Source of the DNA: Gemmatimonadota bacterium | Lineage (GTDB): Bacteria > Gemmatimonadota > Gemmatimonadetes > Gemmatimonadales > GWC2-71-9 | Assembly (NCBI GenBank): GCA_016713435.1 | Contig: JADJPD010000029.1 | Span: 4,708-68,707, forward strand | Length of the DNA: 64,000 nt | Direction of reading: 5' to 3' | In this document: piece after piece, positions 7,112-64,000 of the stretch | Position numbering within the stretch: position 1 is the stretch's first letter | Layout: every line of letters begins with the position of its first letter | The notes under the pieces: model-generated | What the model was told of the DNA's origin: nothing | The model's database searches: none | The model's input: only the letters and a program-made list of their open reading frames with translations | Position numbers and translations under genes: made by a program

Positions 7112-8360
7112 TGCTGCCGGCGCTCAGCGTGGTGATCCCCACCCACAACCGGCGCGACTCGCTGCTCCGCCTCCTCGCCGCACTGGAGCGCGGCACCCTG
7201 CCCGCCGAACGGTTCGAGGCGGTGGTGGTGGCGGACGGCTGCGCGGACGACACGGTGCGGGCTGGCGGCGGGCGCGTCGTTCTCGTTCCCCGTGCGGGTG
7301 TGCGAGCAGCAGCCGGGCGCGGCGCCGCCGCCGCCGGAACCTGGGCGCGGAGCAGGCGCGCGGTGCCGTGCTCGTCTTCCTGGACGATGACATCGAGCCG
7401 CTGCCGACCCTCCTGGCCACGCACCTCGACCTCCACGCCCGCCACGCCGACGAGCCCACCGCCGTGATCGGCGCCCCCATCCCCATCCGCGGCCCGCGCG
7501 ACTCGTACCAGCACATCGCCGTGTGGCATTGGTGGGAGGAGCAGCTGGCCCGGATGGAGCGGCCGGGGCACCGCTTCTCCTACCAGGACGTCTTCACCGG
7601 CGTTTTCTCGCTGCCGAAGGGCCTGTTCATGGCCACCGGCACCTTTGCCTGTGACCTGCCGGAGAGCTGCCGCGACGACTGGGAGTTCGGCATCCGGCTG
7701 CTGGCGCGTGGCACGCGGCTCCTCTACACCCGCGAGGGCGGCGGCTGGCACCACGAGATGCGGAACCACGCCGGCCTGCACGCGCGGAAGCTGGCCGAGG
7801 GCCGCGCCGACGTGGCGATTGCACGGCGGCATCCTGAGCTCTGGCCGTCGCTCCGGCTGGCGCAGCCGGTGGCGGGGCTGGCGCGGCGGCTGGTGTGGCT
7901 GGCGTTCCGGTCGCCGCGCCTGGCGGAGCGGTTCGAGCGGCTGGCGGCGCGGGTGCTGCCCGCGCTGGAGCGGCTCGGCGCGCGCGGCACCTGGCGGCAG
8001 GTGCAGGGGGCGGCGCTCCACTCCGCGTACTGGCGCGGGGTGGCGGTGGAGCTGGGCGGGCAGTCGCCGGCGCGGGAGCTGCGGCGGCTGGCGGCGCACG
8101 CGCAGGAGCGGCGCCGGGTGGCGCCGCCCCGCATCCTCCGGCTGGACCTGGCGTGGGGGCTGCCGGCGGCGGAGTTCGCCCTGGAGGCGGCGCGGCCGCA
8201 CGGGGCGGAGCTCCGCTGGGGCGCCATCCCGCTCGGCCACATCGCGGCGGCGCCCGGGCACGAACGGCTCCGGGGCCGTCACCTCCGGATGGAGCTGGCG
8301 GGGCCGCTGGCGCCGCGGCTCATGGTGGCGCTGGCGCTCGGCGCCGGGGCGCGGGACTGA
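7111..8360 (+). CDS. Family-2 glycosyltransferase, frameshifted (three frames used between ~7255 and ~7335) as assembled
   Basis: Frame 1 gives MLPALSVVIPTHNRRDSLLRLLAAL..VVVADGCADDTV. Frame 2 gives FPVRVCEQQPG. Frame 0 gives RNLGAEQARGAVLVFLDDDIEP.. through to the stop at 8360. The length is not a multiple of 3. Confidence 0.6.
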
Positions 8361-8363
8361 CGC

Positions 8364-9653
8364 GTGGCGGCCAGGCTGCACCAGCTCGGGCCCCCGGTGC
8401 GGGTGCTGGCGCTGGAGCTCACCGAGCCGCTGCCGCTGCTCACCGGCTGCGGCGGCTTCCGCGCACTCCGCTGCCTGGTGCGGCGCGAGGGGCGGCCGCT
8501 CGGCTGGCTCACGGTGGAGTTCCCGCCGCCGGTGGTGACGCCGGCGCTCTTCTTCGGCGCGCTGGCGCAGCAGCTGCCGCACGCCATCACCTCCGCGGTG
8601 GTGACGGCGGAGCTGGCGCCGGCACGGCGGCCGCGACCCTCGGCCCTCCCGCCCATCAGCGTGGTGGTGTGCACCCGCGACCGGGCGGAGTCGCTGGCGC
8701 ACTGCCTCGCCTCCCTCGCGGCACTCGATTACCCGCGCTTCGAGGTGGTCGTGGTGGACAACGCCTCCCGGGGTGAGGCCACCCGGCGGGTGGCCACCGC
8801 CGCCGGCGTGCGCTACGTGCGCGAGGAGCGGCCCGGGCTCGACTGGGCGCGGAATTGCGGCATCCGCGAGGCGCGGCACGCCATCATCGCCTTCACCGAC
8901 GACGACGTACGGGTGGACCCGGGCTGGCTGCTCGGCCTCGCGGCCGCCTTCGCCGACCCGGAGACGCAGCTGGTCACCGGGCTCATCGCGCCGGCCGAGC
9001 TCACCACGGCGGCGCAGCTGGCGTTCGAGTACGCGTACGGCGGCATGGACAAGGGGGTGGTGCCGGTGCGCCGCGCCGCGCGCTCGCCCGCGGACCTGGG
9101 CGCGCTGCTCGGCGCGCACCACCTGGGCGCCGGCGCCAACATGGCGTTCCGCCGCGCCATCTTCGACGAGGTGGGGAGCTTCGACACCGCGCTCGACGTC
9201 GGCACGCCGGCCCGGGGCGGCGGGGACCTCGACATGTTCTACCGCGTGCTCGCGTCAGGCGCGGTGGCGCGCTACGCGCCCGAGGCGCTGGTGTGGCACA
9301 CCCACCGCCGCGACTTCGCCGCGCTCCGGCGCCAGCTCCGCGACAACGGCCGCAGCTTCGGCGTGTACCTGATGACCCGCTGGAACGAGGCCCGGCCGGA
9401 CGGCCGCGGGGGCCTGGCCCGGTTCCAGGTGGCGCGCTACGCGACCGGGACCTGGCTGCGCTGGATGGGGAGCCGGGTGGTGCGGCGGTTCCAGAAGCAG
9501 GAGCCGCTCCCGCTCTGGCTGCAGGCGGAGGAGATCTGGGGGATGCTCACGGCGCCATGGGCGTTCACCGCCACGCGGCGGAGCGACGCCCGGCTCCGCG
9601 CCCGGACGCAGGCGCCGGGGCCCGCCTCCCGCCGGGCGACCGGGCGGCGCTGA
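8364..9653 (+). CDS. Family-2 glycosyltransferase with an N-terminal extension of about 100 aa (paralogue of 5789..7111)
   Basis: ISVVVCTRDRAESLAHCLASL, VVVVDNAS and AFTDDDV motifs are present. The C-terminal half is collinear with the 5789 gene (GGGDLDMFYRVL / GGDHDMFLRIL). The start is GTG. Confidence 0.8.
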   Translation: MAARLHQLGPPVRVLALELTEPLPLLTGCGGFRALRCLVRREGRPLGWLTVEFPPPVVTPALFFGALAQQLPHAITSAVVTAELAPARRPRPSALPPISVVVCTRDRAESLAHCLASLAALDYPRFEVVVVDNASRGEATRRVATAAGVRYVREERPGLDWARNCGIREARHAIIAFTDDDVRVDPGWLLGLAAAFADPETQLVTGLIAPAELTTAAQLAFEYAYGGMDKGVVPVRRAARSPADLGALLGAHHLGAGANMAFRRAIFDEVGSFDTALDVGTPARGGGDLDMFYRVLASGAVARYAPEALVWHTHRRDFAALRRQLRDNGRSFGVYLMTRWNEARPDGRGGLARFQVARYATGTWLRWMGSRVVRRFQKQEPLPLWLQAEEIWGMLTAPWAFTATRRSDARLRARTQAPGPASRRATGRR

Positions 9654-9729
9654 GCGGAAACCGCCTGTCGGCTTCATGCGACGGGCCGCGTCTCCCCTGC
9701 ACACCCGCGGCATCCACCCCGGAGACACA

Positions 9730-10051
9730 CCCGCGGGGCCCCCCCGGGGCCCCGGGGGCGGGGGGGGCGGGGGCGGGGGCCGGGCCGGGGCCCGGGGCCG
9801 GGGCGCCGCCGCGGGGGGGGGGCGGCGCCCCGCGGGGGGGCCCGGCGCCCCGCCGGCCGGGGGCGGCCCCCCCCCCCCCGCGGGGGGGGGGGGGGGGGGG
9901 GCCCGCCGCGGCGCCGGGGCCCCCCCCCCGGGGGGGGGGCGGCCCCGGGGGGGGGGGCGGCGGGGGGGCGGGGGCGGTGGGCGGGGGGGGGGGGGGGGGG
10001 GGGGCCGGGGCCCCCGCCGGGGGGGCGGCCCGGCCCCCCCCCGCCCGGGGG
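9730..10051. repeat. Low-complexity tract of essentially only G and C (a single T at 9978), with long homopolymers
   Basis: Direct reading shows no A and one T across 322 nt. There are G runs of 20 (9882-9901) and 22 (9983-10004) and a C run of 13 (9867-9879). It lies between the last GT2 gene and the DUF326 gene. Confidence 0.9.
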
Positions 10052-44394: not shown

Positions 44395-44469
44395 GGTGGT
44401 TGTAGCTCAATCGGTTAGAGCGCCGGACTGTGGCTCCGGAGGTTGCGGGTTCGATCCCCGTCAGCCACC
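44395..44469 (+). tRNA. tRNA-His (GTG) with encoded G-1
   Basis: Cloverleaf folded by hand: acceptor GTGGTTG/CAGCCAC, anticodon stem CCGGA/TCCGG, loop CTGTGGC. There is an extra 5' G. CCA is not encoded. Confidence 0.85.
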
Positions 44470-44485
44470 CTACATGACGGTCCGT

Positions 44486-44558
44486 AGGTCCGTAGCTCAA
44501 TTGGTAGAGCACCGGTCTCCAAAACCGGGGGTTGGGGGTTCGATTCCCTCCGGGCCTG
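44486..44558 (+). tRNA. tRNA-Trp (CCA)
   Basis: Acceptor AGGTCCG/CGGGCCT, anticodon loop CTCCAAA, T-loop TTCGATT. Confidence 0.85.
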
Positions 44559-44583
44559 CTCTGGAAGGTCGCTGGAAACGTAC

Positions 44584-44656
<73 letters not shown>

Positions 44657-44674
44657 TTGGGGTGGCCCCCCATC

Positions 44675-44746
44675 GGCCCCATCGTCTATCGGTTAGGACG
44701 CGACCCTTTCAAGGTTGAAAGACGGGTTCGATTCCCGTTGGGGCTA
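44675..44746 (+). tRNA. tRNA-Glu (TTC)
   Basis: Acceptor GGCCCCA/TGGGGCT, anticodon stem CGACC/GGTTG, loop CTTTCAA. Confidence 0.85.
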
Positions 44747-44784
44747 CCTGATCGGTTCGGCGCACGACAGTGCGCAGCGGGCAC

Positions 44785-44857
44785 GCGCCGCTAGCTCAAT
44801 TGGCAGAGCAAGTGACTCTTAATCACTAGGTTGTAGGTTCGATTCCTACGCGGCGCA
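44785..44857 (+). tRNA. tRNA-Lys (CTT)
   Basis: Acceptor GCGCCGC/GCGGCGC, anticodon stem AGTGA/TCACT, loop CTCTTAA. Confidence 0.85.
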
Positions 44858-44866
44858 CTCAGCAGA

Positions 44867-44923: not shown

Positions 44924-46624
44924 TCAGTCAGCCGAGACGATGCCCCGCAGCCGGTCCACCCAGGTGGGCTCCGGCGCCGTCACCAGCGCCGCCCGCCAGG
45001 CGCGCAGGAACTCGCCGGCATCGGCGAAGCGCGCCTCGGCGTCGGGCGCGAGCGCGCGGGTAAGGACGCGCGCCACCGGCGGGGCGACGTCAGGCAGTGA
45101 TGGCGCCGCCTCCCGCTGCCGCCGGAGCACGTGCTCCACGGTGCCGCCGCCGAAGGGCGCCCAGCCGGTGAGCGCGTACGCCGCGAGCGCGGCCGCGCCG
45201 TAGAGGTCGGTGCGCTCGTCCACCGGGCGGCCCTCCACCTGCTCGGGCGGGGCGAAGCCGGGCGTCCCCGCGTGTGCCCGCCCGCCGTGCACCCCCGCGA
45301 TGCCGAAGTCGCTGAGCCGCCAGTAGCGCCAGCGGTCGATCAGCACGTTCTCCGGCTTGAGGTCCAGGTGGAGCACGCCGGCCCGGTGTGCCGCCTGCAG
45401 CCCCTCCAGCAGCTGCGCGAACTGGCTCCCCACCTCCTCGATGGGCCGGGCCCCGTGGCGCGCCACCAGCGTGGCCAGGCTCCCCGATTCCGCCAGTTCC
45501 ATGGTGTACCAGACGATGCCGCTGCGGGTGTCCCAGTCGTGCACCGGGATGATGGCGGGGTGCTGCAGCCGCGCCGCCATGCTCGCCTCGTGCCGGAACC
45601 GCGCGATGGCCCGCGGGTCCCGCGCCCGCTCCGCGTGCAGCAGCTTGAGCGCCACGTCCCGCTCGAGCGCGACGTCCCGCACCCGCCACACGGTGCCGGC
45701 GCCGCCCTCGCCGAGCGGGGCCAGCACCTGGTAGTCCGCCCCCACCAGCGCCTGCAGCCCCTCCGCCGTGGTGGGCACGATGCCCGGCTCCACCGCCCGG
45801 ACGGGCACCGCCGCGGGGGCCTGGTCGGCCCGCTCGAGGGCGCGCAGGAACGCCGGCAGGGTGGGGAAGCGCGCCTCGCGCACCGGCGAGAGCGCCTGCG
45901 CAAAGACCGCCTGCGCCCCCGGCCCGAGCGGCAGGTGGGCCGCCGTCTCGGCGCCCACGGTGCCGGCGGGGAGGCCGGTGAGCGCCGCCACCAGCGTGCA
46001 GGCCAGCTGCCACTGGTCCGACAGCGCATCCGGCTGCCATCCCGTGGCCCACTCCGGCGCCCACGGGATGCTGCCCCGCTCCGGGGCGAGCCCCGCCGGG
46101 ATCACCGCCCGCGGCAGCGCCCAGTGCCAGCCTAACAACCACACCCGCCCGCCCGGCGCCTGCCACAAGAGCTCGGGCCCGATGGCGCCGTGGCAGTCGC
46201 CCCGGTCGTGGAGCGAGGCCACGGTGCTGCCGAGCTGGCGCAGCACGTCGAGTGCGAGCACGGGCTGCAGGGCGCCGTCGCGCGCCAGCCGGGGGGCCAG
46301 CGCCTCGCCCGCGATCCAGCGGCGCAGGTAGCCGGGGCCTCGCACCACGTTGCGGCTGCGGGCCCAGAAGTGATACGCGGTGGGAGCGCTGACGGCGTTG
46401 CGATGCGCCAGCGCGCGGGCCTCCGCCGTGAGCCACTCCGCGTGCGCCGGGTCGGGGGCGGTCACCAGGGAGAGCGACCGGCCCAGGGCATCAACCACTT
46501 CCTGGCTGTGCCGCCAGCGGTCGAGCCACACGCCTTCATGCCCCCAGCCCCACTGGCTGGGCAGCTTCCAGTCCACGAGGTGGGCCGGAAGGCTGGCGGG
46601 ATTGGGGGCAGGGGTTGCGCTCAT
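44924..46624 (-). CDS. Tandem pseudokinase - Ser/Thr protein kinase (Hanks type)
   Basis: The C-terminal half has GEGGAGTVWRV, VALKLL, HRAGVLHLDLKPENVLI, SDFGIAG and APPE. The N-terminal half is kinase-like but degenerate (HDRGDCHGAIGPELLW, with no Gly-loop or VAIK). ATG 46624. Confidence 0.8.
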   Translation of the reverse strand: MSATPAPNPASLPAHLVDWKLPSQWGWGHEGVWLDRWRHSQEVVDALGRSLSLVTAPDPAHAEWLTAEARALAHRNAVSAPTAYHFWARSRNVVRGPGYLRRWIAGEALAPRLARDGALQPVLALDVLRQLGSTVASLHDRGDCHGAIGPELLWQAPGGRVWLLGWHWALPRAVIPAGLAPERGSIPWAPEWATGWQPDALSDQWQLACTLVAALTGLPAGTVGAETAAHLPLGPGAQAVFAQALSPVREARFPTLPAFLRALERADQAPAAVPVRAVEPGIVPTTAEGLQALVGADYQVLAPLGEGGAGTVWRVRDVALERDVALKLLHAERARDPRAIARFRHEASMAARLQHPAIIPVHDWDTRSGIVWYTMELAESGSLATLVARHGARPIEEVGSQFAQLLEGLQAAHRAGVLHLDLKPENVLIDRWRYWRLSDFGIAGVHGGRAHAGTPGFAPPEQVEGRPVDERTDLYGAAALAAYALTGWAPFGGGTVEHVLRRQREAAPSLPDVAPPVARVLTRALAPDAEARFADAGEFLRAWRAALVTAPEPTWVDRLRGIVSAD

Positions 46625-46850
46625 GGGCCGGAAGTCGATGTGAGGACTGCTCAAAGTATCGGGGGGCCGGGTCCGGACCCAAGCCCCGGGCGGCGGCCCG
46701 GTTCTCTTCCTCCCCGGCTGGGAAGGGTGGTATCCCCCCAACGTCATACTCCGGGGCATGGAACTTGTTACTTGTGCCCCAAATCACCCCCGCCGAGGCC
46801 CCAAGTCTCGGCGCCACCGTACCATGCGCCTCTTGAGACCGGGACCCGCC

Positions 46851-49800
46851 ATGCGGAATACCCTGCGTTTTGCCATCCTCGCCGCCCTCTTCGTTTCGGC
46901 TGCCTGTGGGGGCGGGGACAGCTCCGGGCCCTCCGACCCGGTCCCGACCTCCCTCGCCATCTCCGGCGGGAACAACCAGACGGCGACGGTGGGGACGGCG
47001 GTGGCGGTGGCGCCGGCGGTCCTGGTGAAGGACCAGCGCGGCAACGGCATCCCAGGCATCACGGTCACCTTCCAGGTGGCGAGCGGGGGCGGCGCCGTCA
47101 CCGGCGCCCAGGCCACCACGGACCAGGGCGGCGTGGCACGGGTGGGCAGCTGGGTCCTCGGGACCGCCACCGGCGCCAACACGCTGAACGCGGCGGTCAC
47201 CGGCCTCACGGCGGTCACCTTCACGGCCACGGCAACGCCGGGCGCCCCGGCTGCCCTCTTCTTCGTGACCCCGCCGTCCGGAACCGCCAGCAGCGGCACC
47301 GCCTTCGCCCAGCAGCCTGTCCTCCAGCTCAAGGACGTCTTCGGCAACAACGCCACGACGGCCGGCGTGCAGGTCACCGCCGCCATCGCCACCGGCGGCG
47401 GCACGCTGCTCGGCACGGCGACGGTGGCCTCGAACGCCAGCGGCGTGGTGACCTTCACCGGCCTCGGCCTCACCGGCGCCGTGGGCGCGCGGACCCTGAG
47501 CTTCACGGCCACCGGCCTGCCCGCGCTCACCTCGGGTGCCATCCAGCTCGGCGCGGGCGCGGCTGCCTCCGTGGCGGCGGTGGGAGCACCACCTTGACGG
47601 GCGTGGCGGGCGGCGCGGCGCAGGGCGGGGCCACCGTGCTCGTCAGTGACGCCAGCGCCAACCCGGTGGCGGGGGCTACCGTCACGTTCGCGATCACGGC
47701 GGGGGGCGGCTCGGTCACCGGCGGCACGGCCACCACCGATGCGCAGGGCCACGCCAGCGTCGGGTCCTGGACGCTCGGGACCGTGGCCGGCCAGGTGAAC
47801 ACCATGACGGCGACGGTGGGCACCCTCCCCGCCGTCAGCTTCACCGCCACCCCGACGGCCGCGGCCGCCGGCGCCCTTTCCATTACCACCCAGCCGGGCG
47901 GCACCACCGCGACGAGCGGCGCCCCGCTGGCGCCCCAGCCGGTGCTGCAGGTGACCGATGCCTTCGGGAACGCCGTGGCGCAGGCGGGCGTGAACGTCAC
48001 CGCCAGCCTCGCGAGCGGCGGCGGCACCCTCGGTGGCACCACCACCGTGGCGTCCGGCGCGGGGGGTGGCGTCACCTTCACCGACCTGGCCGTCACCGGC
48101 GCCGCCGGGGCCCGGACGCTGGCCTTCAGTGCGGCCGGGCTCACCGGCGCCACCTCCGCCAGCTTCACGCTCGGCGCGGGCGCCGCCACGACGATCGCGC
48201 TCAACGGGGGCAACAACCAGTCGGCCGCGGTGAACACCGCGGTGGCGGTGGCGCCGAGCGTCCTGGTCACGGACGCGAGCGGCAACCCCGTGAGCGGGGT
48301 GAGCGTCACCTTCGCCGTCACGGGCGGGGGCGGGGCGCTGACCGGCGCCGCGGCCACCACCAACGCGAGCGGCATCGCCGCCGTGGGGAGCTGGACGCTC
48401 GGCACCAGCGCGGGCGCCAACACCCTCACGGCCACCAGCGCGGGCCTCGCCGGCTCGCCCGTCAGCTTCACGGCCACCGCCACGGCGGCCGGCGGTGCCA
48501 GCATCGTCGCCAACGCGGGCAACGCGCAGGTGGCCACCGTCAACACCGCGGTGGCGACGGCGCCGAGCGTCTTCGTGGCCGATGCCTTCGGCAACCCGGC
48601 CCCCGGCGTGAGCGTCACCTTCGCCGTGGCCACCGGTGGCGGCAGCGTCACCGGCGCCGCGGCCACCACCAACGCCAGCGGCATCGCCACCGTGGGGAGC
48701 TGGACGCTCGGCACGGCGGCGGGAGCCAACTCGCTCACGGCCACGGCGGCGGGCCTCACCGGCTCGCCCGTCACCTTCACGGCCACGGGCGCGGCCGGCA
48801 TCGCCAGCACCATCGCGGTCTCCGCGGGCAACGGGCAGTCGGCCACCGTGGGCAGCGCGGTGGCCACGGCCCCGCGGGTGCTGGTGGCCGACGCGTTCGG
48901 CAACCCGAAGAGCGGCGTCAGCGTCACCTTCGCGGTGGCCACCGGCGGCGGCAGCGCCACCGGGAGCAGTGCCACCACCAACGCCAGCGGCCTCGCGTCC
49001 GTGGGCAGCTGGACGCTCGGCACGGCCACGGGCAGCAACACGCTGACCGCCACGAGCGCGGGCCTCACCGGCTCGCCCCTCACGTTCACGGCGTCGGGCA
49101 CGGCGGCCGCCGCGGCGACCATCGCCCTCAACGCGGGCAACGGGCAGAGTGCCACCTCCGGCACCGCGGTCGCCGTCGCGCCCAGCGTACTGGTCAGCGA
49201 CGCGTTCGGGAACCCGGTGAGCGGCGCCAGTGTCACCTTCGCCGTCGCCACGGGCGGTGGAAGCGTCACCGGCGGCAGCGCCACGAGCAACGGCAGCGGC
49301 ATCGCCACGGTGGGCAGCTGGACCCTGGGCTCCGGTGCCGGCAGCAACACGCTCACGGCCACGAGCGCCGGCCTCGCCGGCTCGCCCGTCACCTTCACGG
49401 CCACCGCCACGGCGGCCTCGGCCACCGCCCTGGCGCTCACCACCCAGCCCTCCGGCTCGGCGGGGAGCGGGGTGGCGTTCGTGCAGCAGCCGGTGGTCCA
49501 GCTCCGCGACGGCTTCGGCAACGCCGTGGCGCAGGCGGGCGTGACCGTCACCGCGAGCATCGCGACGGGCGGCGGCAGCCTCGGCGGCACCGCCGCCGTG
49601 GCCACCGACGCGCAGGGCCAGGCCGCGTTCACCAACCTGAGCATCACGGGCACCGCCGGCTCGCGCACGCTGGCGTTCAGCGCCGCCGGCCTCGCCGGCG
49701 CCACCTCGGGGCCCATCACCATCACGGCGGGCGCCGCGGCGACGATCGCGGTGAACGCGGGCAACAACCAGAGCGCCACGGTCAACAGCGCCGTGGCGGT

Positions 49801-52800
49801 CGCGCCGAGCGTGCTCGTCACCGACGCGAGCGGCAACCCGGTGAGCGGCGCCAGCGTCACCTTCGCGGTGGCCACCGGCGGCGGCAGCGCCACCGGCCAG
49901 AGCGCCACCACCAACGCGAGCGGCATCGCCTTCGTGGGCAGCTGGACGCTCGGCACCACGGCCGGCGCCAACACGCTCACCGCCACGAGCGCCGGCCTCG
50001 CCGGCTCGCCCGTCACCTTCACGGCCACCGGCACCGCCGGCCTCGCCACCCAGATCACCGCCTCCGCGGGCGACGGCCAGTCGGCCGCGGCGGGCACCGC
50101 GGTGGCCATCGCGCCCGCGGTCCTGGTGCGCGACGCGTTCAGCAACCCCGTCCCCGGCGCGAGCGTGACGTTCGCGATCGCGACGGGCGGCGGCAGCCTG
50201 ACCGGCGCCACCGCCAGCACCAATGCGAGCGGCATCGCCACCGTCGGCAGCTGGACCCTCGGCGCCGCCGTGGGCAGCAACACCCTGACGGGGCGGACCG
50301 GCCTCCTCACGCCCGTCACCTTCACGGCCACCGGGACCACCGGCGCGGCCGCGCTCCTCACCAAGACCGCGGGCGACAACCAGGCGGCCACGGCCGGCAC
50401 CGCCGTGGGCGTGGCGCCGTCGGTCACCCTCACCGATGCCTTCGGCAACCCGGTGAGCGGCGCGAGCGTCACCTTTGCCGTGGCCACCGGCGGCGGCAGC
50501 GTCACCGGCGGCTCCGCCACCACCAACGCCAGCGGCGTGGCGACCGTCGGCAGCTGGACCCTCGGCGCCGTGGCGGGCGGCAACACCCTCACCGCCACGG
50601 CGGGGGCGCTCAACGTCACCTTCAGCGCCACCGGCAACGCCGGCACCGCGACGACCATCGCCCTCAACGGCGGCGACGGCCAGGCCGGCAGCGTGGGTGG
50701 CACCCTCGGCACCGCCGTCAGCGTGCTGGTGCGCGATGCGGGCACCAACCCGGTGAGCGGCTACGGCGTCAGCTTCAGCGCGCAGAACGGCGGCACCGTG
50801 AACTGCGGCGGCGGCCCCGCCGCGAGCTGCCTCGCCACCACCAACGGCAGCGGCATCGCCAGCGCCAGCTGGACGCTCGGCAGCACGAGCGGCGTCCAGA
50901 CGGCCACCGCGACGGCCGGCGGCCTCACCGGCTCGCCCGTCACCTTCACCGCCACGGCCACCGCGGGCGCGGCCACGAAGCTCTCCATCACCACGCAGCC
51001 CTCGGCCTTGGCCCAGAACGGCACGGTGCTGGCGCAGCAGCCGGTGCTCCAGCTGCTCGACGCCAACAACAACCCGGTGCTCCAGGCCGGCATCGACATC
51101 GACGCCGCCATCCAGTCCTCGGCGGTGCAGCTGGGCGGCACCACCACGGTGACCACCGACGCCGCGGGCCAGGCCGCCTTCACGGACCTGCTCCTGCTCG
51201 GCGCCACCGGCAGCTATCCCATCCGCTTCACCTCGGGAGCCCTGACGGCCGCCACCTCGTCGAGCGTGGCCGTCACGGCCGGCGCGGCGGTGGCCATCGC
51301 CATCAACGCCGGCAACGGCCAGAGCGCCACGGCGGGCAGCAGCGTGGCGGTGGCGCCCAGCGTGAAGGTGACGGACGTCAGCGGCAACGCGGTGAGCGGG
51401 GTCAGCGTCACCTTCGCGGTGACCTCCGGCGGCGGCAGCGCCACCGGCCTCGGCGCCACCACCAATGCCAGCGGCATCGCCACGGTGGGGAGCTGGACGC
51501 TCGGCACCGCGGCGGGCAACAACCTGCTGTCGGCCACGAGCGCCGGCCTGGCCGGCTCTCCGGTCAGCTTCACGGCGACCGGCACCGCCGGCGCGGCCAC
51601 CACGCTGGCGCTCTCGGGCGGCAACGGCCAGGCCGGCGCGGCCGGCGCGGCCCTCGCCACCCCGCTCGCGGTGCTCGTCACCGACGCCAACGGCAACCCG
51701 GTGAGCGGCACCACCATCACCTGGGCCACGGGGAGCGGCGGCTCGCTCACCCCGGCCACCAGCCAGACGAACGCCAGCGGCATCGCCACCACGAGCTGGA
51801 CGCTCGGCGGTGCCACCGGGGCGCAGGGGGCCACCGCCACCGCCGCGGGCCTCGCGGGCTCACCCGTCAGCTTCAGTGCCACCGCCACGGCGGCCGGCGC
51901 CGCCACCCTCGCCCTCGACGCGGGCGACAACCAGGCGGCCACGGCGGGCAGCGCGGTGGCCACGGCGCCGAGCGTGCTGGTCAGCGACGCCTTCGGCAAC
52001 CCGGTGAGCGGCGTCGCCGTCACCTTCGCCGTGGCCTCGGGCGGCGGCAGCGTCACCGGCGGCAGCGCCACCACCAACGCCAGCGGCATCGCCACGGTGG
52101 GCAGCTGGACGCTCGGCGGCACCGCCGGCGCCAACACGCTCACCGCCACGAGCGCGGGCCTGGCGGGCTCGCCCGTCACCTTCACCGCCACCGGCACGGC
52201 CGGCACCGCGGCGAGTCTCGCGCTCAATGCCGGCACCGGCCAGACGGCCACCGTCGGCGTGGCCGTGGCCACCCGGCCGAGTGTCGTGGTGCGCGACGCC
52301 TTCAGCAACCCGGTCAGCGGCGTGACGGTCACCTTTGCCGTGGCCACCGGCGGCGGCAGCGTCTCGGGCGGCAGCGCCACCACCAATGCGAGCGGCATCG
52401 CCACCGTGGGCAGCTGGACGCTCGGGACCACGGCGGGCAGCAACAGCCTCACGGCTACCAGCGCGGGCCTGACCGGGTCACCCGTCACCTTCACGGCCAC
52501 CGGCACGGCCGCAGCCGCCACGACCATCGCGCTCAACGCCGGCAACGGCCAGAGCGCCACGGCGGGCACCGCGGTGGCCACGGCGCCGAGCGTGCTGGTC
52601 ACCGACCAGTACGGCAATGCGCGGAGCGGGGTGAGTGTCACCTTCGCGGTGGCCACGGGCGGCGGCAGCGTCACCGGCGGCGCCGCCACCACCAACGCGG
52701 GCGGCATCGCCACGGTGGGCAGCTGGACGCTCGGCGGCACGGCGGGCAGCAACACGCTCACCGCCACGAGCGCCGGCCTTGCCGGCTCGCCGGTCACCTT

Positions 52801-55800
52801 CTCCGCCACCGGCACCGTCGGTGCCCCGGCGAGCATCACGAAGACGGCGGGCGACAACCAGGCCGCCACCGCGGGTGCGGCCGTCCCGGTGGCGCCCGCG
52901 GTCACCATCAGGGACGCCAACGGCAACGCCGTGAGCGGTGTCAGCGTCACCTTCGCCATCGTCACGGGCGGCGGCAGCGTCACCGGCGGCAGCGCCACCA
53001 CCAACGGCAGCGGCGTCGCCACGGTGGGCAGCTGGACCCTGGGCGCGGTGGCGGGCGGCAACACGCTCAGCGCCACGGCCGGCGCCCTCAGCACCACCTT
53101 CAGCGCCACCGGCAACGCCGGCAGCGCCACGACCATCACCCTGAACGGCGGCGACAACCAGGCCGCCACCGTCGGCTCCACGCTGGGCACGGCGCTCAGC
53201 GTGGTGGTCCGGGACGGGGGCAGCAACGCCGTGAGCGGCTACAGCGTCGGCTTCAGCGCGCAGAGCGGCGGCACGGTGAACTGCGGCAGCGGGGCCGCCG
53301 CGAGCTGCCTCGCCACCACCAACGGCAGCGGCATCGCCAGCGCCACCTGGACCCTCGGCAGCACCGCGGGCGCCCAGGCGGCCACCGCCACCGCCGGCGG
53401 CCTCACCGGCTCACCGGTGACGTTCAGCGCCACCGCCAACGCCGGCGCCGCCTCACTCATGAGCGCCAGCGCGGGCCAGGGCCAGAGCGCCAGCGCCGGC
53501 ACCGCGGTGGCCACGGCCCCGGCGGTGCTGGTCACCGACGCCTTCGGCAACCCGAAGAGCGGCGTCAGCGTCACCTTCGCGGTCGCGAGCGGCGGCGGCA
53601 GCCTGACCGGCGGCGGGACCGTGCTCACCAACGGCAGCGGCATCGCCACGGTGGGCGGCTGGACCCTCGGCGCCACGGCGGGGAGCAACAGCGTCACCGC
53701 CACCAGCGTGGGGCTCGGCGGCTCGCCGGTCACCTTCACCGCCACCGGCACCACCGGCCCGGCGGCCACCCTCGCGCTCGCGGCCGGCGACGGCCAGTCC
53801 GCGCAGGTCGGCTCGGCCGTGGCCACCGACCCGGCGGTGCTGGTCACCGACGCCTTCGGCAACCCGGTGAGCGGCGTGAGCGTCACCTTCGCCGTCACGG
53901 CGGGCGGCGGCGGCGTCGCCACCACCAGCACCAGCACCGACGCGCAGGGCCTCGCCACCGCGGGCGCCTGGACGCTCGGCACCACCCCGGGGACCAACAC
54001 GGTGACGGCCACGAGCGCCGGCCTCGCCGGGTCGCCCGTCAGCTTCACGGCCACGGCCACCACCGCCCCGGCCTCGGTGCTGCTGCTCAGCACCGCGCCG
54101 TCCGCCACCGCCGCGAGCGGCGCGGCGTTCGCGCAGCAGCCCGTGGTCACGCTCGAGGACGCCTTCGGCAACACCGTGGCGCAGGCGGGAGTCCCCGTCA
54201 CCGTGGGCTTCGCGAGCGGCAGCGGGACCTTCCTCGGCAGCTCCACCGTCGCCACCAGCGCGGGCGGCACGGCCACCTTCAGCGGGCTCGGCATCAGCGG
54301 GCTCGCCGGCAGCTATACGCTCCGCTTCAGCTCCACCGGCCTCACCGCCGCCACCAGCGGCGCCATCACCCTCTCGGCGGGGGCGGCCACCGCGTTCACC
54401 CTCCAGGCCGGCAACAACCAGTCGGCAACGGTGAACACCGCCATCGGCGTCCTCCCGGCGGTCAAGGTCACCGACGCCGCGGGCAATCCGGTGAGCGGCG
54501 TCGCCGTCACCTTCGCCGTGGCTTCGGGCGGCGGCAGCGTCAGCGGCGGCAGCGCCACCACCAATGGCGCGGGCATCGCCTCGCCGGCATCCTGGACGCT
54601 CGGCACCGCCGCGGGCAGCAACACGCTCACGGCCACGAGCGCGGGCCTGGCCGGCTCGCCGATCACCTTCACGGCCACCGGCACCGCGGGCGCGCCCGCC
54701 ACGCTGACGGCGCAGAGCGCCACCAGCCAGAGCGGCCGCGTGGGCATCGCCGCCACGGCCCTCCCGTCGCTGCTGGTGCGCGACCAGTTCGGCAACCCCG
54801 TCCCCAGCGCCAACGTGACCTTCCAGGTGGCGGCCGGCGGCGGCGCCATCACCGGCGGCAACGCCCTCACCAGCGCCAGCGGCGTCGCCACCCTCGGCAG
54901 CTGGACCTTCGGCACCACCGTGACCACCAACACGGTCACCGCCGCCGTGGGCGCGCTCACCCCGCTCGCCTTCGACGCCAGCGTCACCTTCGAGGTCGCC
55001 GAGGTGAGCGGCGGCGGCGTGCACGGCTGCGCGCGCACGGTGGATGGCGTGGCCTTCTGCTGGGGCGCCAACAACCTCGGCAGCGTGGGCGACGGCACCA
55101 GCACCCAGCGCCTGGCCCCGGCCGGTGTGCTCGGCGGCCACACCTTCATCCACCTCGAGGCGGGCGCCGACTTCTCCTGCGGCCTCGATGGCGCGGGCCT
55201 CGCCTACTGCTGGGGCAACAACACCAACGGTGCCCTGGGCAAGGGCTCGGCGGGCAACTCCTTCACCCCGGTGGCGGTGGCCGGCGGGCGCGCGTACACC
55301 GACGTGACTCTGCAGCGCGCGGCGGGCACCAACCACGCCTGTGCCCTCACCGCGACCGGCCTCCTCTACTGCTGGGGCAACAACGCGAGCGGCCAGTTCG
55401 GGACCGGGCCCGGCGGTGCGGCCACCAACTTGAGTCCGGTGCAGGCCGGCCAGTCCGGCGGTGGCGTCACTTACACCTACGTGACGGTTGGCAACCTTTA
55501 CACCTGCGCGATCCGCACCGGCGGCTCGGCGTATTGCTGGGGCAACAACAGCTTCGGCCAGTTGGGCACGTGGAACAAGACGAACCAGACGACCCCGGCC
55601 GCGGTTAGCGGAGGGCTCACCTTCTCCGAGCTCGCCGGGGGCCAGGTGCACACGTGCGGGCTGACCGTCGCGGGGACGGTCTACTGCTGGGGGCTCAACG
55701 CCTTCGGTCGGCTCGGGCAAGATCCGAATGTGCTGAGCGAGAGCCTGACCCCCGTGCAGGTCCCTGGCCTTGCCGGCGTGCTGCACATCGCCGCTGGCGG

Positions 55801-56089
55801 CGGGCACACCTGCGCCCTCCTCAACACGGGCGAGGTCTACTGCTGGGGCTCGAGCGAATCGGGTGAACTCGGCAACGGCGTCTCCGGCGTCGGCACCTTC
55901 TCCTTCACGCCGGTGGCCGTCACCCTGCCGCCGGGCGTGGGCAGCTTCACCAGCATCACCGCCGGCGCGGCCTGGGCCTGCGGCATCGGCGGCACCAGCG
56001 CCTACTGCTGGGGCGAGGGCAGCAACGCCCAGCTCGGCAACGGCAACATCGTGGACGTGGACGTGCCGGGCGCGGTCAGCAACCCGTAA
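46851..56089 (+). CDS. Giant surface lipoprotein of about 3,079 aa: about 26 tandem bacterial Ig-like modules plus a C-terminal seven-blade RCC1-like beta-propeller; one frameshift near 47575-47595 as assembled
   Basis: Signal/lipobox MRNTLRFAILAALFVSAAC in frame 0 (ORF 46758..47597). After ..AAASVAAVG the protein continues in the frame of ORF 46190..56089. Recurrent modules of ~100 aa are present (..NGGNNQSA.V.TAVAVAPSVLVTDA.GNPVSGVSVTFAVATGGGSVTG..ASGIATVGSWTLGT.AG.NTLTATSAGLAGSPVTFTAT). From 54989 there are seven copies of the xHxCAL...G..YCWGxNxxGQLG blade. Confidence 0.8.
46950..54988 (+). repeat. Coding tandem repeats of about 290-300 bp (Ig-like modules), two sequence subtypes
   Basis: About 21 A-type units (VTF..GGGS.TG..SWTLG) are interrupted by about 5 B-type units (TTQP..QQPV.QL.D.FGN.VAQAGV.VTA..). 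Many exact nucleotide strings of 20-40 nt recur, for example GGCATCGCCACGGTGGGCAGCTGGAC. Confidence 0.85.
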
Positions 56090-56108
56090 GCGGCCCCGGC
56101 GCCACGCG

Positions 56109-56142
56109 AACGGGGGCGGCACCGCGTGGTGCCGCCCCCGTT
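56109..56142. terminator. Bidirectional hairpin terminator after the giant gene
   Basis: AACGGGGGCGGCACC-GCGT-GGTGCCGCCCCCGTT forms a 15-bp stem. It is followed by TCGTC. Confidence 0.65.
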
Positions 56143-56145
56143 TCG

Positions 56146-56619
56146 TCAGCCATGCCAGGTTTCCCAGGTGAGCCCACAGCGTTGCTGGAAATAGAGGGGG
56201 GGATGTCCTTCGCGGTCGAGCAGCGCGTGCAGCATCTCGTGCCGCACCACCAGCTCGTGGGCCACGTAGCCCTCGGCCACCGCGATGCGCACCTCGTCGC
56301 CCACGCGGGACCAGAGGCCCACCTTGGGCCCCTCGTGCGTCGGGAAGGTCATCGCCCCGGGCACCACGTACCAGCGGATCCGGGTGAAGCGCCCCGTGCG
56401 CTGCGCGCACGACTCGGTGGCCTGCCACCAGCTGAGGTAGGCCGCGGGCGGCGTCATCGGCACGGCGTTGGCGGGGAAGTCGCTCGACGGCTCGAGCATG
56501 GTACACGCGGCTAGGAGCAGCATGACCCCTGCGAGTGACGCCTTCCGGGTGGAGGCGTGCGTCTCTCCAGGGGTCCACGCCGCGCCCGCCGCGCCGCTCC
56601 GCCGCGAATCAGCAGTCAT
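56146..56619 (-). CDS. Small putative lipoprotein with an HExxH motif (possible minimal zinc metallopeptidase)
   Basis: It has the lipobox-like MLLLAAC and the motif VVRHEMLHALLDREGH. The start is uncertain (ATG 56619 or 56523). Confidence 0.5.
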   Translation of the reverse strand: MTADSRRSGAAGAAWTPGETHASTRKASLAGVMLLLAACTMLEPSSDFPANAVPMTPPAAYLSWWQATESCAQRTGRFTRIRWYVVPGAMTFPTHEGPKVGLWSRVGDEVRIAVAEGYVAHELVVRHEMLHALLDREGHPPLYFQQRCGLTWETWHG

Positions 56620-62546: not shown

Positions 62547-62753
62547 GAACCGGCGGCGGATTGTTGCGTCTTCCCCCGTGGGGGCGTGTCCGCAGGCGTA
62601 CACCTATGTGGTGATGCCACAACAAGTTCCATTTTTCGCCTCGGACGGCGATTCGGAACTGCTGGCGCCATCGGCATTTAGGTGCTACCCTCTCCCTCCC
62701 GCGATAGGCACGACCCCTGCCGTCGCCGTATCCGTCTACTGCCCGCAGGTCCC

Positions 62754-64000
62754 GTGGTGTCTAGTCGTCCCTTCCGTCGCGCTCTCCTTGCCCTCCTCTG
62801 CGCCGCCACCCTGGTGCGCTGCGGCGGGGGCGATGACCTGACCCTCCCCTCCGAAGGCCTGCCCACCGCCATTGCCGCCCTCGCGGGCGACGGGCAGTCG
62901 GGCACCGTGGGGCAGCCGCTCCCGGACACGCTGATCGCGCGGGTGACCGACGCCAAGGACCGTCCGGTGCAGGGTGCGCGGGTGGTGTTCCAGGCCATCG
63001 CCGGGGGCGCCGGGGCCGACCTGATCCCCGACACCGCCGTGACCGACGCCGACGGCCAGGCCCGGAGTGTCTGGCTCCTCGGCACCCTGGCCGGGCAACA
63101 GCGGGTGGAGGCGCGGGTGATCGTGGCGCCGCCCGCCACCACCGTCCTCAAGACCCCGTTCACCGCCACCGCCCTCGCGGCGGCGGCGGATACCATCCTC
63201 GTGGTGAAGGGCCAGGGGCAGGTGGGCACCGTGGGCGCGGTGCTCACGGACTCGCTCGGCGTTCTGGTCACCGACCGCTTCGGCAATCCCATCAGCGGGC
63301 GGACGGTCAGCTGGACCGTGCCTGGCGGCCAGGGCTCGGTGAGCGCGGCGAGCACCGTGACCGGCGCCGACGGCCGCACGGCCGTGACCCGGCGCCTCGG
63401 CCCCAACGCCGGGGCGCAGACGGCCGCGGCGGCGTCGGCGGGGCTCAAGGGCTCTCCCGTCAGCTTCACGCACACGGCCACGGCGGGCGGCGCCACCACG
63501 CTGGTCAAGGTGCACGGCGACGCGCAGACGGCGCCGGCCGGCTTCCAGCTCACCGACTCCCTGGTGGTCCAGGCCCGGGACGCCAACGGCAACGGCGTCC
63601 CGGGGCTCAGCGTCATCTGGGTGGTGGCCACCGGCGGCGGCTCGGTCACGGCACAGAGCAGCGTCACTGATGCGCAGGGCCGCGCCTTCACCTTCTGGAA
63701 TCTCGGGCCGGCGGCCGGCGGCAACACCGTGACCGCGGCGGTCACCGGCCTGCCGCAGGTGAGCTTCAGCGCCACCGGCACCAGCGCGCAGCCGGCGGCC
63801 ATCCAGGCGCAGAGCGCCACCAGCCAGGCCGGCACCGCGGGCGCGGCCGTCGCCGCGCTGCCGTCGGTCAAGGTCACCGACCAGAACAACAACCCGGTCC
63901 CCGGGGTCACCGTCACCTTCGCCGTGACCCAGGGCGGCGGCAGCGTCTCCGACGGGCAGGGGAGCGGCCCGAGTGTCTCCATCCCCACCAACGCCGGCGG
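62754..64000 (+). CDS. Surface lipoprotein made of bacterial Ig-like modules, 3' end outside the window
   Basis: It is open from GTG 62754 (VVSSRPFRRALLALLCAATLVRCGGG) to the window end, so it is not in the ORF track. Modules include ARVTDAKDRPVQGARVVFQA, VTDRFGNPISGRTVSWTV, ARDANGNGVPGLSVIWVVATGGGSVTA and VTDQNNNPVPGVTVTFAVTQGGGSV. ORF 62678..63991(-) is its antisense shadow. Confidence 0.7.
   Translation, partial: MVSSRPFRRALLALLCAATLVRCGGGDDLTLPSEGLPTAIAALAGDGQSGTVGQPLPDTLIARVTDAKDRPVQGARVVFQAIAGGAGADLIPDTAVTDADGQARSVWLLGTLAGQQRVEARVIVAPPATTVLKTPFTATALAAAADTILVVKGQGQVGTVGAVLTDSLGVLVTDRFGNPISGRTVSWTVPGGQGSVSAASTVTGADGRTAVTRRLGPNAGAQTAAAASAGLKGSPVSFTHTATAGGATTLVKVHGDAQTAPAGFQLTDSLVVQARDANGNGVPGLSVIWVVATGGGSVTAQSSVTDAQGRAFTFWNLGPAAGGNTVTAAVTGLPQVSFSATGTSAQPAAIQAQSATSQAGTAGAAVAALPSVKVTDQNNNPVPGVTVTFAVTQGGGSVSDGQGSGPSVSIPTNAG

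Follow-up and report, generated by a model that had tools for sequence, protein, structure and literature searches.

The inverse autotransporters invasin, intimin, InvD and FdeC (type Ve) carry a rod of tandem Big_1-type immunoglobulin (Ig)-like modules, about 4-10 in number, between an N-terminal beta-barrel/LysM region and a C-terminal non-Ig tip domain that is C-type-lectin-like (Intimin_C or invasin D5). In Leptospira, the surface adhesins LigA and LigB combine an N-terminal lipoprotein anchor with 12-13 tandem bacterial Ig-like domains, which belong to Big_2 and not Big_1, and LigB ends in a non-repeat C-terminal domain that is not a propeller. Fibrillar adhesins have been described as an anchor, a tandem-repeat stalk and a terminal non-stalk domain; the survey that sets out this layout (Monzon et al. 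2021, PMC8286594) counts Big_1 among the stalk domains, and its main text does not mention Gemmatimonadetes. The present work concerns a gene of a Gemmatimonadales bacterium of wastewater sludge, at positions 46851-56089 (+ strand) of a 64,000-nucleotide stretch of Gemmatimonadota bacterium contig JADJPD010000029.1 (assembly GCA_016713435.1, contig positions 4,708-68,707), hereafter the window, which would encode a protein of 3,079 amino acids (aa) once a single-base frame break is repaired. The protein has the layout of a fibrillar adhesin; it shares the Big_1-type rod and non-Ig tip with the inverse autotransporters and the lipid anchor plus Ig array with the Lig proteins, but it has 26 modules, about twice as many as Lig, and ends in a seven-blade RCC1-like beta-propeller. 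On balance, our sequence comparisons and structure models favor the reading that it is a lipid-anchored, rod-shaped, fibrillar adhesin-like envelope protein with the propeller as its binding head, whose mode of action would resemble that of invasin and intimin and also of the Lig lipoproteins.

The ATG at 46851 opens MRNTLRFAILAALFVSAACGGGD, and the start codon, signal peptide and lipobox (MRNTLRFAILAALFVSAA-C19) occupy 46851-46907 (+), as read from the translation with a PROSITE-like lipobox expression. The N-terminus MRNTLRFAILAALFVSAAC fits the PROSITE PS51257-style pattern, with a basic n-region, an uncharged h-region and a Cys within the first ~35 residues, and the same N-terminus is found in four orthologs (L002, L003, P0202 and P0246), which upholds the lipobox proposed in the initial annotation, made from the DNA letters alone. 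The signal peptide would be cleaved and Cys19 acylated to become the lipidated first residue of a mature protein of 3,061 aa (280 kDa, pI 4.4). Module 1 starts at aa 31, leaving 11 residues after the lipobox Cys, and no barrel profile matches this N-terminal piece. The tandem Big_1 array is present, whereas neither the beta-barrel (12-stranded in inverse autotransporters) nor the LysM region nor a lectin-like tip is, and membership of the inverse autotransporters was rejected.

The stalk (aa 31-2717; 46941-55000, +) was segmented with hidden Markov models built from one A-type and one B-type module and then from all modules. It divides into 26 abutting Ig-like modules (M1-M26) of about 100-108 aa without linkers, 21 of them A-type (Big_1) and five B-type, in exactly the order of the initial annotation: A B A B A A A A B A A A A' B A A A A A A A' A A B A A. 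The B modules are M2 (47244-47558), M4 (47864-48181), M9 (49418-49732), M14 (50969-51283) and M24 (54068-54382), all on the + strand. The two A' modules, M13 (50645-50968, +) and M21 (53123-53446, +), are 80% identical and both carry the expected NCG..C insert, in the form of the loops TVNCGGGPAASC (Cys1319/Cys1327) and TVNCGSGAAASC (Cys2145/Cys2153), respectively. A modules match Pfam Big_1 (38 bits for a single module against a cut-off of 34.9), whereas B modules give only sub-threshold matches to Invasin_D3 (as seen weakly for M4), CarboxypepD_reg and Big_1; because the A profile still weakly detects the B modules, the two types appear to be divergent relatives. An AlphaFold2 (AF2) model of an A-B-A segment (47582-48490; 86 homologs aligned) reached a mean predicted local distance difference test score (pLDDT) of 97.4 and a predicted template modeling score (pTM) of 0.86, the latter a sign that the relative placement of the three domains is predicted with confidence. 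In the Protein Data Bank (PDB), Foldseek matched this model best to FdeC (4e9l), InvD (5ldy) and invasin (1cwv), with intimin D0-D1 also matched; by this model, both module types adopt the invasin/FdeC-type Ig fold. Searched against the PDB by sequence, B+A+A modules gave no match, and NCBIfam holds no family for any part of the protein. The stalk consists to 65% of Ala, Thr, Gly and Ser, with charged residues making up just 2.8%. Directly abutting domains of this type would form a stiff rod, which at an assumed ~4 nm per domain would be ~100 nm long.

The propeller takes up the last 362 aa (aa 2718-3079; 55001-56086, +) and forms the C-terminal end of the protein, inspection of the open reading frame (ORF) having found neither a sorting domain nor a C-terminal sorting signal after it. 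It matches Pfam RCC1 (PF00415) at 2.8e-48 in seven stretches and WD40_RLD (PF25390) at 1.3e-61 (209 bits against a cut-off of 150), and by sequence it matches UVR8 in the PDB at 6e-50, as well as HERC2, RCC1 and RPGR. Its AF2 model (pLDDT 92.4, pTM 0.88) superimposes on UVR8 in Foldseek with a template modeling (TM) score of 0.91, a root mean square deviation of 1.8 Å and an E-value of 1e-35. Profiles and models thus agree with the seven RCC1 blades of the initial annotation, including on the point at which it could have failed, the profile support for an RCC1 fold; its blade core motif, by contrast, holds only approximately, with AFCWG and ..SVG in blade 1, ..QFG in blade 3 and SSESGELG in blade 6. 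The same seven-blade RCC1-like fold is shared by eukaryotic RCC1, UVR8 and the RCC1-like domains of HERC2 as well as by BLIP-II of Streptomyces exfoliatus, a bacterial protein that is secreted and binds other proteins. In an exported bacterial protein, neither Ran guanine nucleotide exchange factor activity nor chromatin binding is to be expected; the propeller would instead act as the distal head that binds a protein or glycan ligand on other cells or in the floc matrix.

The distribution of cysteines is read as an extracytoplasmic signature. Of the 19 cysteines, all 18 other than the lipobox Cys19 stand in pairs: two C-x7-C pairs in the A' inserts and seven pairs, one per blade, followed by WG (six blades with C-x9-CWG, a single one with C-x8-CWG). 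An alignment of 102 bacterial homologs shows a conservation of at least 90% for the blade pairs, with the consensus AGxxHTCGLTxxGxAYCWGxNxxGQLG, and among 4,096 blades from 270 proteins, counted without regard to sequence kinship, 2,118 have both cysteines, 1,892 neither and 86 a single one. We infer that each blade is stapled by one disulfide between its C-x8/9-CWG cysteines, a prediction that fits an exported protein. A similar arrangement is known from plants, where the CRINKLY4 ectodomains carry a C(X~10)CWG motif (PMC4617170) in a seven-blade extracellular RCC1-related propeller (PDB 7a0j, 7a0k). The crystal structures show one disulfide per blade, which the authors took to be an adaptation to the extracellular environment and called unique to CRINKLY4; BLIP-II and UVR8 do not have the pattern (bioRxiv 10.1101/2020.08.10.245050). 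The window propeller matches CRINKLY4 at 1.6e-12 by PDB sequence search and 1e-16 by Foldseek, but it is much closer to UVR8/RCC1 in both sequence and fold (6e-50; TM 0.91 against 0.57 for CRINKLY4), so that the blade cysteine pairs may have arisen by convergence. The spacing also differs (x8/9 against ~x10), and Pfam profiles find in the window ORF neither the tumor necrosis factor receptor-like cysteine-rich domain nor the kinase of CRINKLY4.

Relative to L002, the ortholog of a related species, amino acid differences and all in-frame indels of the propeller concentrate in blades 3-5 (55322-55834, propeller aa 108-278), while blades 1, 2, 6 and 7 are almost unchanged. The nonsynonymous rate (dN) of the propeller against L002 is ~2-fold that of the stalk. 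Together, the clustering and the higher dN are compatible with a diversifying binding face, without amounting to proof of one. Sludge metatranscriptome contigs cover parts of 55009-56179, the propeller-coding region, and this is weak evidence that the gene is transcribed, as DNA carry-over is possible.

The gene is not a single ORF in the window. The stretch 46851-56089 is 9,239 nt long, which is not divisible by three, and it is made up of two frames. The lipoprotein frame (46851-47597, +) encodes the signal, M1 (A), M2 (B) and the start of M3 and is ended after 248 codons by a TGA at 47595-47597; the remaining 2,835 codons, from M3 to M26 and the propeller, lie in a second frame (47582-56089, +; stop at 56087-56089), which belongs to an ORF of 46190-56089 that makes sense as protein only from 47582. 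An exact-sequence lookup of the 248-aa product gave no record. Insertion of one G after 47581 (GGG to GGGG) gives 9,240 nt and the 3,079-aa protein, with the junction ...AAASVAAVGSTTLTGVAGG... The initial annotation, which had taken the span for one continuous gene of about 3,079 aa, passed through this break without noticing it; its length is recovered after the one-base insertion, its single reading frame is not. At the site itself (break at 47581/47582; 47579-47584, +) the window reads GGTGGGA, relatives GTGGGGA and L002 GTCGGGA and, judged by its kin, one G is absent from the G run.

One explanation of this break is that the missing G is real and the gene a true, very recent pseudogene, or else a split gene that would yield a lipoprotein stub of 248 aa and a remainder of 2,835 aa left unexported. 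This is possible though somewhat unlikely. It takes the window sequence at its word, and the 7.9 kb upstream show zero coding indels against contigs ~98% identical, so the assembly is not generally indel-ridden. Against it stands the comparison of eight sludge or bioreactor metagenome runs across the break. In seven of the runs (X1-X7), contigs with ~98% identity to the window span the site and all have an extra base, either a G after 47581 or, in a more divergent strain, a C after 47584; the contig of X9 stops at 47584, and its overhang proceeds with the extra C. The window's version was found in none of the eight runs, the window's own strain being present in no indexed run (highest word share 0.53). 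L002 reads GCC GTC GGG AGC (AVGS) in a single frame at this position, and with the whole gene aligned the break is the only frame-breaking gap between the two. Moreover, the 8.5 kb downstream contain no further stop or frame error, and the ratio of nonsynonymous to synonymous rates (dN/dS) against L002 is 0.13 ahead of the break, 0.15 directly behind it, 0.21 in the remaining stalk and 0.33 in the propeller. The extra base in all spanning contigs, the intact frame of L002 and the low dN/dS together indicate that the lineage keeps one intact gene under purifying selection. The missing G in the window would then be an error of one base in the consensus, or else a private mutation of very recent date; a short G run is a typical place for a consensus error, and we put the artifact slightly ahead. 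A second homopolymer length difference lies 870 nt upstream of the break, where the intergenic C run at 46711-46715 is one C shorter in the window than in the contigs of all five runs compared there (X1-X5).

The nearest genomes are Gemmatimonadales/Gemmatimonadaceae metagenome-assembled genomes from membrane bioreactors and sludge. L001, at 91-93% DNA identity, is represented by a contig that begins inside the array, whereas intact orthologs are present in L002 (3,389 aa, 29 modules) and L003 (2,150 aa, 17 modules, ABABABBABBABBABBA), and P0210 is an intact syntenic ortholog of 899 aa with five modules (ABABA) plus the propeller. Downstream of the gene, a phosphodiesterase, an M19 dipeptidase, a small ORF, SURF1 and a second Big_1 lipoprotein are kept in L001-L003, and the phosphodiesterase, M19 dipeptidase and SURF1 genes also lie beside P0210; this kept synteny shows that one locus carries stalks of 5, 17, 26 and 29 modules. 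Across the Gemmatimonadales, further proteins have the same MRN..ACGGGD lipobox, (A/B)n modules and single C-terminal propeller, for example P0202 and P0210 (899 aa each), P0301 (1,526), P0252 (1,852), P0268 (2,050), P0246 (2,344) and P0260 (2,475) in addition to L003 and L002, and they differ from the window protein only in the number (5 to 29) and order of A and B modules. Judged by these comparisons, the window protein belongs, as a long member and not as an outlier, to a Gemmatimonadales family that is populous and uncharacterised. P0121, a 763-aa NCBI protein, is 65% identical to the N-terminus, and its closing residues (…SRRSWPGSSAAPACSRR) are out of keeping with the rest; this homolog may come from a family gene of a different assembly that was likewise called with a frameshift or truncation.

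Beyond this family, an exhaustive HMMER search with two stalk modules plus the propeller returned 180,169 cluster representatives with E<=1e-3, of which 51,023 reach E<=1e-30. RCC1 blades are borne by 124 of the 150 best matches (902-7,235 aa long), among which are giants with several propellers and further members of the family (11-20 modules). Searched on its own, the propeller matches more than 7,900 proteins, many of them from Gemmatimonadota with Big_1/Big_2 plus RCC1 domains and lipobox-like N-termini. This is in agreement with a review in whose set of highly repetitive propellers the RCC1/BLIP-II group is mostly bacterial (PMC9218822), and the statement in the initial annotation that RCC1 propellers are mainly eukaryotic has to be given up. 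The Joint Genome Institute labels relatives "adhesin/invasin", and a literature search combining RCC1 with Gemmatimonadetes, lipoprotein or adhesin found no paper on such proteins.

Several points weigh against an adhesin-like surface protein. Surface exposure, lipidation and ligand are predictions for every member of the family; the residue at lipobox position -3 is a non-canonical Ser; the gene as given is broken; and the neighbours (kinase, cytochrome c peroxidase, phosphodiesterase, M19 dipeptidase) include no lipoprotein surface-export machinery or partner gene. Set beside the fibrillar adhesins, the protein has the tandem stalk, and for surface attachment the lipobox alone was found; it has no recognised adhesive domain, neither RCC1 nor propellers being mentioned in the main text of the survey (PMC8286594). 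An alternative that we regard as improbable is a periplasmic or inner-leaflet envelope protein whose propeller binds or inhibits a periplasmic target, as BLIP-II does with beta-lactamases. A lipobox by itself does not imply surface exposure, and BLIP-II is a bacterial RCC1-like propeller that binds proteins tightly (PMC9218822). In addition, a PF00144 beta-lactamase-family gene (395-1522, +) lies immediately upstream of the 899-aa ortholog on L079, in the same orientation, but this neighbour is absent from the window. The periplasm is typically narrower than a stalk of the ~100-nm class, so that the predicted rod would exceed it, and the best structural analogues of the stalk are surface adhesins.

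The number of modules could also be an artifact of assembly, the true count not being 26, which we think quite unlikely. Short-read contigs of related strains do fragment inside the array, a search for Nanopore runs, whose reads might span it, found none listed, and the M1-M5 part of the window differs from L002 by a three-module block. On the other hand, modules are at most ~83% identical to one another in DNA and protein alike, and L002, an independent assembly, is colinear with the window over 48175-56173 (M5-M26 plus the propeller) at 90.3%, with gaps confined to the propeller, their lengths adding up to multiples of three. The alignment with L002 over 46712-48198, which takes in M1-M4 and the beginning of M5, has a single gap, of 1 nt. 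Window M1-M4 match M1-M4 of L002, and M6-M26 match its M9-M29 one to one (88-99%), L002 having an extra A-B-A block; the colinearity supports the module count of the window for most of the array, and the one-to-one orthology implies that the modules are old and individually conserved and have not been homogenised. A programmed -1 ribosomal frameshift controlling the amount of full-length protein, the last of the alternatives, was rejected as extremely improbable, since the break offers no X XXY YYZ slippery heptamer (GCG GCG GTG GGA) and all relatives have a single frame, even if a -1 shift there would restore the protein.

The initial annotation had further proposed, from the regular placement of the B modules, that the stalk consists of super-repeats created by segmental duplication, a proposal that fares weakly overall. 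M12-M13 against M20-M21 is the only clear two-module duplication (83% and 80% aa identity), and a permutation test was significant at an offset of eight modules only (p about 0.01). Agreement in A/B type is highest at offsets 5 and 10 (0.86 and 0.88), where identity is not raised, and a regular five-module super-repeat finds no support in sequence identity; an [A B B] super-repeat is seen in L003. In Periscope proteins, the tandem repeats are highly identical in DNA, and their arrays grow and shrink within populations (Whelan 2022, PMC9704523). The window protein was not counted among them, its repeats being at most ~83% identical and in one-to-one orthology with those of L002, and its length varying only between species (5 to 29 modules). 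The synonymous rate (dS) against L002 is 0.42-0.47 in the first four modules (46851-48175) and 0.22 in the remaining stalk (48176-55000), a ~2-fold difference, and the three-module indel lies at the boundary between the two regions.

Compared with characterised adhesins, the combination of a lipid anchor, a Big_1 stalk and an RCC1 head is new. Metagenomic protein catalogues commonly contain this architecture, already with automatic labels such as "adhesin/invasin" and "RCC1 family", and it would be of little surprise to a specialist; of the side results, the most interesting is how abundant the "crinkly" cysteine-pair blade is in bacteria. As a speculation, and an unlikely one, the cysteine-paired C-x9-CWG RCC1 propeller could be a head so far overlooked with which bacterial fibrillar adhesins, here those of Gemmatimonadota in sludge flocs, bind their ligands, with a very large bacterial class sharing CRINKLY4-type blade disulfides, possibly by descent, and a stalk that has grown from 5 to 29 modules at one syntenic locus and so tunes the reach of the head. 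If true, RCC1-like propellers would join the binding heads of bacterial surfaces, a little-studied but abundant wastewater phylum would gain a candidate floc or attachment factor, and the blade-disulfide pattern would be widespread in bacteria and not specific to plants. From a practical point of view, a single base would cause the deposited sequence to be annotated as a pseudogene or as two ORFs.

The surroundings of the gene gave no functional clue, and promoter and terminator scans at both of its ends were uninformative. Convergent to it lies a small ORF (56146-56619, -) for a 157-aa product with a lipobox-like LLLAAC and an HEMLH (HExxH) motif and no Pfam hit, which is 54% identical to the product of L079 4575-5042, in the same position beside the 899-aa family member of that distant relative; it may be a small metallopeptidase lipoprotein. 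A second lipoprotein of Big_1 modules (…LLCAATLVRCGGGDD…; 62682-64000, +; Pfam Big_1 1.5e-29) starts 6.6 kb downstream and runs off the window end, with counterparts at the same position in L001, L002 and L003. Upstream, the Pkinase domain of a Ser/Thr kinase gene (44924-46759, -) is confined to aa 343-577; the N-terminal 340 aa gave no Pfam hit, and G+C at third codon positions (GC3) is coding-like from about 46600 downward, leaving the true start uncertain. Five tRNA genes (44396-44858, +; His-GTG, Trp-CCA, Glu-CTC, Glu-TTC and Lys-CTT) lie between the cytochrome c peroxidase and kinase genes. Within the gene itself, long antisense ORFs at 47527-50748 (1,073 aa), 51214-53226 (670 aa) and 53453-56578 (1,041 aa), all on the - strand and with GC3 near 1.0, are taken to be by-products of high G+C and repeat composition and not genes. 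The G+C content of the window is 70-80% and peaks at 80.7% in 8001-10000, over two family-2 glycosyltransferase genes.

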